From Phyllosticta citribraziliensis (lineage: Eukaryota), in the NCBI RefSeq assembly GCF_038025025.1, contig NW_027117339.1, positions 2,542,001 to 2,606,000 on the forward strand: 64,000 nt of DNA, in the 5' to 3' direction. Made by a program: the position numbers and the translations under genes. Positions 58,211 through 64,000 of the stretch are shown piece after piece; position 1 is the stretch's first letter; each line of letters opens with the position of its first letter. The notes beneath the pieces were generated by a model. That model saw only the letters and a list, made by a program, of their open reading frames with translations. It had not been told where the DNA came from and did not search any database.

Positions 58211-60348
58211 ATGGACAACATTATCTACCACGACTCGCCCCTAGCGGCATACCTCCAAGGCCCGTTCCCCTGTCCCTACCTTATTCCACCACCATTCTAA
58301 CCCCTTCCACAGCTGAGGGAACAGGCGAGCGCGAACCGGGCTGGATCGCTTCCGTCGAGGATAGCGACACGGGCGAGAAGAAGGACATTTCGGGAGATGA
58401 GGCTCCTGAGGCACCCTCCTTTGCGCCCCGAGGTCCGTCCACTCTGCACTCCAAGCTCCGCGGAAAGCTCCCGCAACCTCTCAAGCTTCCTCAAGGCGGC
58501 TCATTCAACCGTCTCCAAAGCGCCTGCTCCGTACGTCTCCGTCCTTGCCATCCTCGTCTTCGCAAGCAATCGCATCCTGACCTTGGCGCAGCGAGTAATC
58601 AATTCTAGACTGGGCCGGGCTGATAACGCACGCTTTCTCGAACATTTTCGTTACATCATCGTCGCCTCCCAGCTGCTCTCCGAGAGTTCTGGCCAGGGCA
58701 CCTTCAAGATCCCCGCCGCTCCTGGCGCTGGTGGCCAACAACATGCCGGGGATTACAAGATCGAATCGGTGAACGTCACGGGCGCGACGGCCACCGGGGT
58801 GGGAGCCTTTGTGACTGTGTGTCTGATACAGTGGGCTCGCAATCAAGAAGAGGGAGGCTTTAGCAAGGGTAGACTGCTCGTCGCTGTTTTCGCGACTGCC
58901 GTCGGACTGTCATTCGCGTATGCGCATGCAACGCGAAAATGGCTGCAGCACCTCAGGCACCGCGCCATCAACACTGCGTCGGTGCTGGTCGCCAATCTGC
59001 AGACATTTGACACAGCCAGTTCCTCGTCCCTCATGCTCATCCAAGAAGTCGAGCTGGTTTCTCGGGGCTATAGATTGTATGACGGCCCCATGCCCGAGCG
59101 CCAACGCATATGCTGACATGAGCACAGGAGCACCCCCCTACCACCAATTACCAGATTGGATGAAAAGGGTCAGAGCCGACGTTGCGTTAGGTTACGAAGG
59201 AACCTGAAGAATGCCTTTGCAGCTGCCATACCCGCGCTTTTGGAAGAATGCGCCACACTGCGCTCGCTCGTCGAGCCAGATGATCTCGAAAGATATCTTG
59301 ACGTTTACGACATCACCTCACAGGACATGCAGGAAGCTTTTCTCGGATACTCAGAAGGTGAATTTGAAGACGGGGAAACATTGAAAGCACTACGCATCCT
59401 CCAATATCGGTTGATCTCCCTTCGGAGAATATTGCTCTGCTCGCTCCTTGCTCTCGAGGCAGAGGGTGACAAATCGGATTTTTACCGGTGGCGAACTGCC
59501 ACGGAGTCGATGAAACATATCGCTGAAATGACCGGCGCGTGGTGCGAGAGATTCAATAAGATTTTGAGCGAAGAGGAGCGTAAGTAAAAATTCTGGAAAG
59601 CCAATCCGGCTTGAGCTGACAAATGACAGAATTTACCATGCCTTCGCCCCAGCCCAAACGTGCTTCAAATCTATCCCCAGACAAGGAGCGTCTTCGAACT
59701 CAGGTGCGAAAGCTTAGCGCTCTCTCGTCTGGGATTCGCGGTCTGCAGGCCAAGATGCAGATCCTGCGTGAAGAGTCGAACAAATCTTTGGAGGAATCCT
59801 CAGAGGTAAATGAGCTGGGCACGCATCTCATGGCGCAGTATGATTCGATTGGGGCAGATCTCAAGTCCCTAATGCAAGCTTGGGAGGCGGGAAAAGCAGC
59901 CCTGGCGCTCAACATTGATCGTGCGGAGCGTCGCATCTCTCAAGCATCCTCCAACGGCGGACTCCGTTCTCCAGTGCCGAGTCTTGGTGGTCTCACTGCC
60001 GTTGACGAGGATGGCACCCCGAGTGACGCTTTGCGCGCACTCAACGGCGAGCCATGTTTGCAAGGCCACAAGCACTCGAGCAGTTCGGGTATATCCGCCA
60101 GCGAGTCTGACGAGGAGATCTTTGAAGCAATTGCCATGCCCAGGCAGAGGACGACTATGAGTCGCGAGGAGCGCATGATCAAGATGCAAGAAGACCGCGT
60201 CCGGCAAACCACCCTCAAAGAACAGCGCGAGTCGAACTCAAACATGCTCAAAGAGCTAGAGAGCGTCATTAGTCTGCGGCCAGGGCCTGGGCCAGGGCCA
60301 AGAAGACAACGGCCAGTGACTTTTGGTGGGCGCATAGGGTCTCTTTGA
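58211..60348 (+). CDS. vezA: Vezatin-like (myosin-binding domain) membrane protein
   Basis: MDNIIYHDSPLAAYLQ, FLEHFRYIIVASQLL, two TM segments, LIQEVELVSRGYRL|STPLPPITRLD, LSSGIRGLQAKM, and C-terminal MLKELESVI. Introns 58260-58312 (GC-AG), 58531-58591, 59077-59128, 59580-59629. Confidence 0.82.
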
Positions 60349-62173: not shown

Positions 62174-63371
62174 ATGTCTACCGACTACAAGTTCGAGGGA
62201 TGGTGCGGTCTTGACCCCAAGGCCGCCGAGGGTAACATGGTCTGGCAGGAGTACGAGCCCAAGCCGTTCTCCGAGGACGACGTCGACATTCAGATTTCCC
62301 ACTGCGGTATCTGCGGCAGGTAAGCTACCCTCTTCAGCATTCGAGCTGCTGCATTGGACTTGGAATTGACGCACTGCAGTGACATCCACTCCCTCCGCTC
62401 CGGCTGGGGCGAGACCCCATACCCTTGCGTCGTTGGCCACGAAATCGTCGGCAAGGCCGTCCGCGTTGGAAAGAACGTCAAGCACATCAAGGAGGGCTCT
62501 CGCGTTGGTGTCGGTGCTCAGGCATCTTCTTGCTTGAAACCCGACTGCGAGGCATGCGCTGATGGCGAGGTCAGTATCCCACCACACGTCTGAAAGTGGT
62601 CTTGTTGTTAACATGTAGCAGGAGAACCACTGCCCCAACACGGTCGGTACCTACTGTTCCAAGTACCCCGACGGAAGCAAGTCCTACGGTGGTTACGCCA
62701 ACTACAATCGCACGCCATCCCACTTCGTCCTCAACATCCCTGAGTCCATTTCCTCGGCCGACGCGGCGCCCATGCTGTGCGGCGGTATCACCGTCTACTC
62801 TCCCCTGAAGCGTGAGGGTTGCGGTCCGGGCAAGAAGGTTGGCATTGTTGGTCTTGGTGGTCTTGGACACTTTGGTGTTCTGTTTGCCAAGGCTCTGGGT
62901 GCTGAGAAGGTCGTCGTCATCTCCCGTACCTCTGGCAAGAAGGCCGACGCGGAGAAGATGGGTGCCGACGGTTTCATTGCTACGGACGAGGACAAGGACT
63001 GGGCCTCCACCAACGCCAACAGCCTTGACCTGATCGTCTCGACCGTCTCTTCGCCGAAGCTGCCTCTCATGGGCTACTTGACGCTGCTCCGCAGGAAGGG
63101 TGTCTTCATCCAGGTCGGTGCTCCCGAGGACGCTCTGCCTCAGTTCAACGCCTTCGCCCTGATTGCCAAGGGCTGTAAGATTGGTGGCTCCCTCATTGGT
63201 CCCCCCTCCGAGATTCAGGAGATGCTGGAGCTCGCTGCCGAGAGGAAGATCAAGCCCTGGATTCAGGAGCGTCCGCTTGACGATGCCAACCAGGCCGTCG
63301 TCGACATGGAGGATGGCAAGGCCAGGTACCGGTACGTCCTGGTCAACCAGAAGGTTGCTGGTAAGCAGTAA
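62174..63371 (+). CDS. NADP-dependent zinc alcohol dehydrogenase (ADH6/7, cinnamyl-ADH family); alternative spliced end at 63436
   Basis: CGICGSDIH, GHEIVG, structural Zn Cys cluster (SCLKPDCEAC..ENHC), APMLCGGITVYSPL, GLGGLGH, ISRT (NADP type), GKARYRYVL. Introns 62320-62379 and 62570-62618/62621. Confidence 0.93.
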
Positions 63372-63775
63372 ATCATCAACGACCCAAAAACCATGACGAA
63401 CGAGACCTAGGGCGTATGGAGAATTCAAAGCTCTGAAGAGAGATAAAATAGATTAACGATTGCGAATTTCCAACATGCCTTCTCATGAGTGCTCCGGTGA
63501 ATTACGTGCTTGCTGTGACGACCCTTCACACAGCGAATTGACGTCAATTTATGGCCGGGTAATATCGTGACAGGCTCGCTTATGCAGATCGTGAGGGGTA
63601 CTTCGCGTACCTGACGGGAACGGAAGGTCGAGAATCATTTGTTGGAGCATCAATTTGTCCGCCAGGCTCTATACGATGCATCCCGGGGATTGGCACCAGC
63701 ATACAAATACGCCGCCATGACTCTGACGGCAGCCGCTGTGGTCATCCAAGGGAACCTCCGGACAGCCAAAAAATC

Positions 63776-64000
63776 ATGCAGCGGCCTTTACTGACTTACT
63801 TGCTTTTTTCTACCATTGGCGCGGCCGAAGACCCCTTCCGGCCATACCCGCTCCCTGATGCACATCTCGCGACGACTTCGTTCCTGGACCACGCGGGCTT
63901 TCTCTCAGGCTTCGATGACGCGCAGTGGTACCTGGACAACATACCCTTCGTCGACTTCCCCGACCAGTCTCTCCAGGATGTTTATTACTACCGTGCCAGC
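63776..64000 (+). CDS. Secreted six-hairpin glycosidase-like protein, N-terminal part only
   Basis: MQRPLLTYLLFSTIGAA (signal peptide)...WYLDNIPFVDFPDQSLQDVYYYR, open to the end of the window. Confidence 0.65.
   Translation, partial: MQRPLLTYLLFSTIGAAEDPFRPYPLPDAHLATTSFLDHAGFLSGFDDAQWYLDNIPFVDFPDQSLQDVYYYRAS

Follow-up and report, generated by a model that had tools for sequence, protein, structure and literature searches.

A Stop-spanning Terminal Intron Predicts a Peroxisomal Isoform of an Adh6/CAD-type Alcohol Dehydrogenase in Phyllosticta

Introduction

Among the fungal enzymes with a hidden peroxisomal isoform, the closest known case to the one described here is MDH. In A. fumigatus and Lipomyces starkeyi, the final MDH intron is kept in the abundant, annotated mRNA that encodes the cytosolic enzyme, and its splicing yields a peroxisomal targeting signal (PTS1) (PMC7491326). 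The same paper describes an event more than 590 My old, which uses tandem acceptors 4 nt apart and adds one residue (Hurtig et al. 2020, PMC7491326). Alternative splicing also gives a cryptic PTS1 to A. nidulans PGK and Ustilago maydis GAPDH, as relayed in later papers (Freitag et al. 2012, via PMC3798809, PMC12316961). A different route is taken by the U. maydis aldehyde reductase Art1 (um03914, annotated as "related to Lactaldehyde reductase"), an NADH-dependent enzyme that acquires its PTS1 when ribosomes read through a UGA-CU stop (Stiebler et al. 2014, PMC4207609).

The window analyzed here is a 64,000-nucleotide stretch of contig 2 of a 31-Mb fungal assembly, and it contains an alcohol dehydrogenase (ADH) gene that may join this group. 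As far as the sources describe these systems, the ADH gene resembles MDH in having an annotated, intron-retaining form without a PTS1 and a final intron whose splicing creates one. Unlike the ancient NAD-MDH event, with its tandem acceptors and single added residue, the ADH intron has one acceptor, adds seven residues and has so far been found only in Phyllosticta. As with PGK and GAPDH, alternative splicing would equip a cytosolic enzyme with a PTS1 at its C-terminus; those enzymes, however, are glycolytic and their localization is reported as shown by experiment, whereas the zinc ADH is known here from its sequence and from RNA contigs. Art1, too, is an oxidoreductase of aldehydes or alcohols and has a cryptic peroxisomal isoform, but it relies on readthrough where the ADH relies on splicing, and its C-terminus, as given in the source, is unlike that of the ADH family. 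We take Art1 to be an iron-type ADH and not an ortholog of the Phyllosticta enzyme; it seems to belong to another family. For the group that includes the S. cerevisiae and plant enzymes nearest to ours (1piw, 1yqd), we found no peroxisomal form in the open literature.

An Adh6/CAD-type Dehydrogenase Gene

The gene runs from its ATG through two introns to a TAA (table 1) and encodes 361 residues, identical at 361/361 positions to P. citribraziliensis protein P0125; other full-length Phyllosticta proteins share 339-354 identical residues with it. Domains PF08240 (ADH_N), PF00107 and PF13602 all score above the Pfam cut-off and mark a zinc medium-chain dehydrogenase. The nearest solved chains are 1piw (E 4.3e-90) and 1yqd (E 3.9e-77), with plant sinapyl/cinnamyl alcohol dehydrogenases among them; we take 1piw to be S. 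cerevisiae Adh6p. The zinc-ligand motifs and the SR motif (ISR) of the cofactor site align with 1piw, and an SR motif at this site presumably indicates use of NADP(H). Homologs are named "alcohol dehydrogenase (NADP+)" by their sources. Judged by its domains and closest solved chains the protein is an Adh6/CAD-type zinc alcohol dehydrogenase, and it is probably an aldehyde reductase that uses NADP(H).

Several features around the gene were recorded alongside. The acceptor of intron 2 is tandem (TAG CAG, 62616-62621), and the P. citriasiana model P0001 contains an additional Gln at this point, as use of the TAG would give. Another P. citribraziliensis model, P0128 (369 aa), goes out of frame within a run of C at about 63200-63210 and finishes in a different frame, probably through an assembly error. 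The upstream neighbor (58301-60345) is a multi-exon Vezatin-family gene with PF12632, which Pfam calls a myosin-binding motif of peroxisomes, for which we claim no link to the ADH. Near the end of the window another gene begins (63756-64000), which RNA contigs of runs X1 and X3 start to cover, and the open frame at 63563-63997 gave no match in a Pfam search.

Table 1. Features of the ADH gene, in window positions.
Feature	Coordinates	Strand	Evidence
ADH exon 1, coding part (from ATG)	62174..62319	+	intron 1 joint in 4/4 runs
Intron 1, 60 nt, GTAAGC..CAG, branch candidate TTGAC	62320..62379	+	spliced in 4/4 runs
ADH exon 2, GroES-like ADH_N domain	62380..62569	+	Pfam PF08240
Intron 2, 52 nt, GTCAGT..TAGCAG, tandem acceptors	62570..62621	+	spliced in 4/4 runs at CAG
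ADH exon 3, common to both isoforms, zinc-binding dehydrogenase domain, ends ..NQKVA-G	62622..63360	+	Pfam PF00107/PF13602; 1piw
Optional terminal intron 3, 50 nt; kept, K-Q-stop; removed, stop deleted	63361..63410	+	kept in X1, X3 (to 63407), X15; skipped in X6
5' splice site GTAAGC, overlapping Gly-Lys-Gln codons (CTG^GTAAGC)	63361..63366	+	sequence; same hexamer as intron 1 donor
TAA stop of 361-aa intron-retained isoform (..VAGKQ)	63369..63371	+	identical to P0125
Candidate branch site ATGAC	63393..63397	+	sole NTRAY pentamer in intron 3
3' splice site TAG (in CTAG 63407-63410)	63408..63410	+	X6 joint
Coding part of predicted cryptic last exon: rest of Gly codon, R-M-E-N-S-K-L, TGA 63434-63436; 366-aa isoform	63411..63436	+	sequence; P0123
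PTS1 codons Ser-Lys-Leu	63425..63433	+	sequence

A Terminal Intron Across the Stop Codon

The last codons of the ADH, GGT AAG CAG TAA, embed a donor (G^GTAAGC). An earlier note on this DNA had placed a 5' splice site at 63361 in the last codons, an ATGAC at about 63393 and a CTAG at 63407-63410, and each of these coordinates checks. The note's reading of the outcome is also confirmed on the sequence: deletion of 63361-63410 removes the stop and converts the end ..VAGKQ, which carries no PTS1, to ..VAGRMENSKL, giving a predicted 366-residue protein that terminates in NQKVAGRMENSKL. Its remark that the intron has the length of others in the window likewise agrees with the 50 nt found here and the 60 and 52 nt of ADH introns 1 and 2.

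The TAG is the first YAG 45-100 nt past the donor, and the sole other YAG in that interval would lead to ..VAD. Over a wider range, 30-159 nt past the donor, nine AG sites were considered as acceptors, and 63410 is the only YAG among them to yield a PTS1. Use of the GAG at 63404 would likewise produce an SKL end; this site is not a YAG and is absent from the RNA contigs. Readthrough of the stop was rejected as a route, the context being TAA ATC and not TGA CT and the extension, IINDPKTMTNET, having no PTS1.

We defined a strict PTS1 as an end of the form [SAC][KRH][LM]. When the 249 nt downstream were dinucleotide-shuffled with the donor fixed and any YAG accepted, a strict PTS1 arose in 61/20,000 shuffles and SKL in 3/20,000; real stretches of the window used as the 3' end gave a strict PTS1 in 43/8,857 and SKL in 0/8,857. 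Over the thousands of genes in a genome a few such cases are expected by chance, so the junction itself is the deciding evidence.

The weak branch site, which the earlier note held responsible for a split between cytosol and peroxisome, is a possible cause of partial splicing. Introns 1 and 2 likewise lack a CTRAY consensus (TTGAC, TTAAC), and in a rough scan 11 of 40 candidate branch pentamers began with A, where shuffles gave 6.1. The clearer difference may be pyrimidine content, which is 0.38 in intron 3 and 0.53 and 0.52 in introns 1 and 2; a purine-rich intron body might keep splicing partial.

Elsewhere in the same genome, the PGK gene (L126:2258-2316; G000:C7:1180836 onward, + strand) has the C-terminus ..ALSSKS, encoded across an A^GTAAGT donor. 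Removal of a 59-nt intron that ends at an AAG acceptor and has CTGAT before it is predicted to change this to ..ALSRSPPRL, in the manner reported for A. nidulans PGK. The MDH gene (L129; G000:C12, about 694050, - strand) has the C-terminus ..NPPTK, again encoded across A^GTAAGT. Its two acceptors, CAG and TAG, are separated by 4 nt (introns of 111/115 nt), and the distal one predicts ..NPPTKL, as described for A. fumigatus and Y. lipolytica. The genome thus appears to carry both known cases, PGK and MDH, each with a stop-overlapping donor and a predicted PTS1-type outcome.

Retained and Spliced Forms in RNA and Gene Models

We compared the gene with the assembled RNA contigs of four runs (X1, X3, X6 and X15) out of 24 listed; such contigs drop minor variants, and they show presence, not absence. 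Introns 1 and 2 are removed in contigs of all four runs, which indicates that the contigs derive from mRNA. The main contigs of X1 and X3 and the two X15 contigs of the gene differ from the window by no letter, and these runs are therefore taken to represent the window's species. All three retain intron 3 with the other two introns spliced, reaching 63475 (X1), 63421 (X15) and 63407 (X3). The earlier note had named as its alternative a constitutively spliced, simply peroxisomal ADH, which these intron-retained mRNAs contradict. The junction 63360^63411 occurs in the contigs of none of the three own-species runs, one of which has a depth of about 2,480, and this counts against the two-isoform reading.

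Run X6 comes from a relative that is 95-99% alike. Its contig skips exactly the 50 nt, GT..AG, with introns 1 and 2 also spliced, at a depth of 140 and with 35 letters on the short side of the junction. The junction predicted by the earlier note is therefore present to the nucleotide in the mRNA of a sister species, and in 0/3 runs of the window's own. Its support is one contig from one run, with two differing letters in 63410-63444 and the last three residues of X6 unread. A paralogous copy was rejected as the origin of this joint: the genome contains the 3' region only once, and X6 matches the gene over its full length at 95-99%. The six amino-acid changes listed for X6 are six of the seven that set P. 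citrichinensis P0124 apart, and the source of X6 appears to be the same species. As the P0124 gene model ends GKQ, both forms are on record for apparently one species, and in the four runs the retained and spliced forms never occur together. These data prove intron 3 for the genus and its retention for the window's species. The assembled form in the window's species is the retained one, and the spliced form is predicted there.

Gene models show the same two ends. The Phyllosticta cluster has 11 members: eight with the GKQ end, one with a partial GK end, one frameshifted, and P0123. The donor-bearing GKQ end is thus kept in 9/11 members (one of them the partial GK), and also in P0002. P0123 from P. 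citricarpa, with 366 residues (KAK7533717.1 plus two other accessions), has the C-terminus VAGRMENPKL and corresponds to the spliced model, so that P. citricarpa has both models on record, P0122 (GKQ) and P0123 (RMENPKL). The earlier note had expected annotation to miss the spliced isoform, which is so for the other ten cluster sequences and not for this one. The P0123 extension shares 6/7 residues and the stop position with that of the window, the -3 residue being P in place of S, and none of the 11 cluster sequences ends in SKL. In the ascomycete Histoplasma the tripeptide PKL was shown to suffice for import into peroxisomes (PMC13343957). The cryptic exon has 2 differences in 35 nt, compared with about 6 in 30 in the 3' UTR (a count by eye from the loose end) and no fewer than 12 in 95 in the 5' UTR; the Fisher p values of the two UTR comparisons, 0.13 and 0.35, are not significant.

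PTS1 Ends Across the ADH Family

Beyond P. citricarpa with its PKL, PTS1 ends recur among homologs of the ADH. A strict PTS1 is found in frame in 20 of the best 120 homologs, where 0.25% is expected from composition. A search by C-terminal motif found at least 113 metagenome loci, at least 85 of them distinct; among the matches listed, 12/85 distinct homologs have a strict PTS1, 25 more have a broader one by our own definition (GKL, QKL, TKL, AKI and similar) and 48 have none. The homologs in all these counts are related and include paralogs, and do not represent independent events. Among the 48 listed homologs without PTS1, with no Botryosphaeriales DNA identified among them, 14 have a donor and an acceptor flanking the stop, and none gains a cryptic PTS1 by splicing or readthrough. 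The earlier note had proposed to look in orthologs for a conserved donor and an in-frame SKL-type end; the extension is seen in a P. citricarpa model, and no such route among these 48. Ten further clusters scanned for alternative C-termini yielded none with a strict PTS1. In Botryosphaeriaceae the end is EKHAE in 23/23 sequences that include the C-terminus (of 29, with six N-terminal fragments set aside), and the Saccharata ADH ends AGQ; either end might conceal a donor of this kind. The 48 homologs and the EKHAE ends indicate that a visible peroxisomal form is missing from many relatives.

A quick tree of 73 of 125 rows (those of at least 335 aa), from which we claim no order of gains and losses, has PTS1 ends scattered across it, with the near-miss ends HAK, HAKS and HAKV beside HAKL. 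In it Phyllosticta joins Botryosphaeriales proteins without an in-frame PTS1, loosely (SH-aLRT 85). Of the ADH paralogs L002-L012 in the window's own genome, four (L002-L005) were scanned, and none of these reaches a PTS1 in frame, through readthrough or through splicing. Botryosphaeria dothidea has a second ADH copy (P0016 cluster) that ends ..ENLSKM, a strict in-frame PTS1, and its Macrophomina counterpart ends ..YVLEN; in B. dothidea gene duplication may do what splicing does in Phyllosticta. The pattern suggests that peroxisomal targeting is a recurring trait of the family, with the splice route so far seen only in Phyllosticta.

Discussion

We consider it likely that one gene yields two Adh6/CAD-type ADH isoforms through optional splicing of a last intron that spans the stop codon. 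When intron 3 is kept, translation would end at the TAA and give the 361-residue protein ending GKQ, without a targeting signal, presumably the cytosolic bulk of the enzyme. When it is removed, the stop is lost and seven more codons are predicted to be read, giving 366 residues ending in -SKL; in the window's species this would be a minor or conditional product. Recognition of SKL by Pex5 is well established, and Pex14_N matches are present in the genome, so the longer form could be bound by Pex5 and imported into peroxisomes. There it might reduce aldehydes or exchange NADPH and NADP+, a role suggested by the enzyme class and by the need of peroxisomes for NADPH (PMC9549241). The observed structure is largely as it was first read, and the peroxisomal function is putative.

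Other readings weigh the same data differently. The switch may be active in a sister species and nearly silent in the window's, the SKL exon being an unused leftover: all three own-species runs retain intron 3, the sole spliced contig is from a relative, and PTS1 is patchy across the family, with near-miss ends next to HAKL. The window's donor, acceptor, frame and canonical SKL are nevertheless all intact, minor variants are dropped from contigs, and known isoforms can be very rare, at about 0.1% for C. albicans GND (PMC7491326); we regard this reading as unlikely, if still of some weight. It is improbable that genuine splicing of intron 3 amounts to noise, the intron having arisen at the 3' end by chance and its product, even with a little import, serving no selected function. 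The expected chance frequency per genome, the lack of significant constraint on the cryptic exon and the absence of such a form from the 48 PTS1-less homologs listed all speak for noise, but the spliced form is the one assembled in X6, PTS1 is strongly enriched in the family, and the extension and stop position shared with P. citricarpa differ by one change that itself gives another working PTS1.

A competition between splicing and early 3'-end formation, with the cytosolic form made mainly by polyadenylation inside the last intron, would fit the deep X3 contig, which stops within the intron with no loose end. A contig end, however, cannot prove an RNA end, and X1 crosses the intron while X15 reaches beyond it; the uncovered stretch past 63407 in X3 was not counted as evidence, and we hold this mechanism to be very improbable. 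That intron 3 is always spliced, the enzyme simply peroxisomal and the GKQ models annotation errors has a negligible probability: X6 has the spliced form only, but own-species contigs from which introns 1 and 2 were removed keep intron 3 in 3/3 runs, and contradict it there. Optional splicing of the stop-spanning intron is the reading we prefer.

In the open literature we found no spliced PTS1 isoform of an Adh6/CAD-type enzyme and nothing on the Phyllosticta gene; subscription papers and supplements, including those of 2012, may list one. The mechanism is already established, and the surprise is accordingly moderate; neither a case in this enzyme class nor the PTS1 pattern across the family appears to have been reported. 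With this gene, an Adh6/CAD-type dehydrogenase would join the few cytosolic enzymes of fungi for which a hidden peroxisomal isoform is known. The wider fact, apparently unremarked, is that about one in six or one in seven homologs has a strict in-frame PTS1. The splice route apparently occurs in a single genus, and sister species differ in the isoform that is assembled, which makes this a compact case for the origin of dual targeting. More tentatively, and as a reading that is less likely than not, Adh6/CAD-type NADP(H) aldehyde reductases could be an overlooked peroxisomal class in filamentous fungi, in which PTS1 was repeatedly gained and lost. Phyllosticta would have arrived there through a stop-spanning intron particular to its lineage, with a main outcome that varies by sister species or growth conditions, a young and tunable switch for peroxisomal NADPH/aldehyde metabolism. 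If this is confirmed, an NADP(H)-linked aldehyde reductase would be present in the peroxisomes of many filamentous fungi, where it could serve to turn over NADPH or to remove aldehydes.
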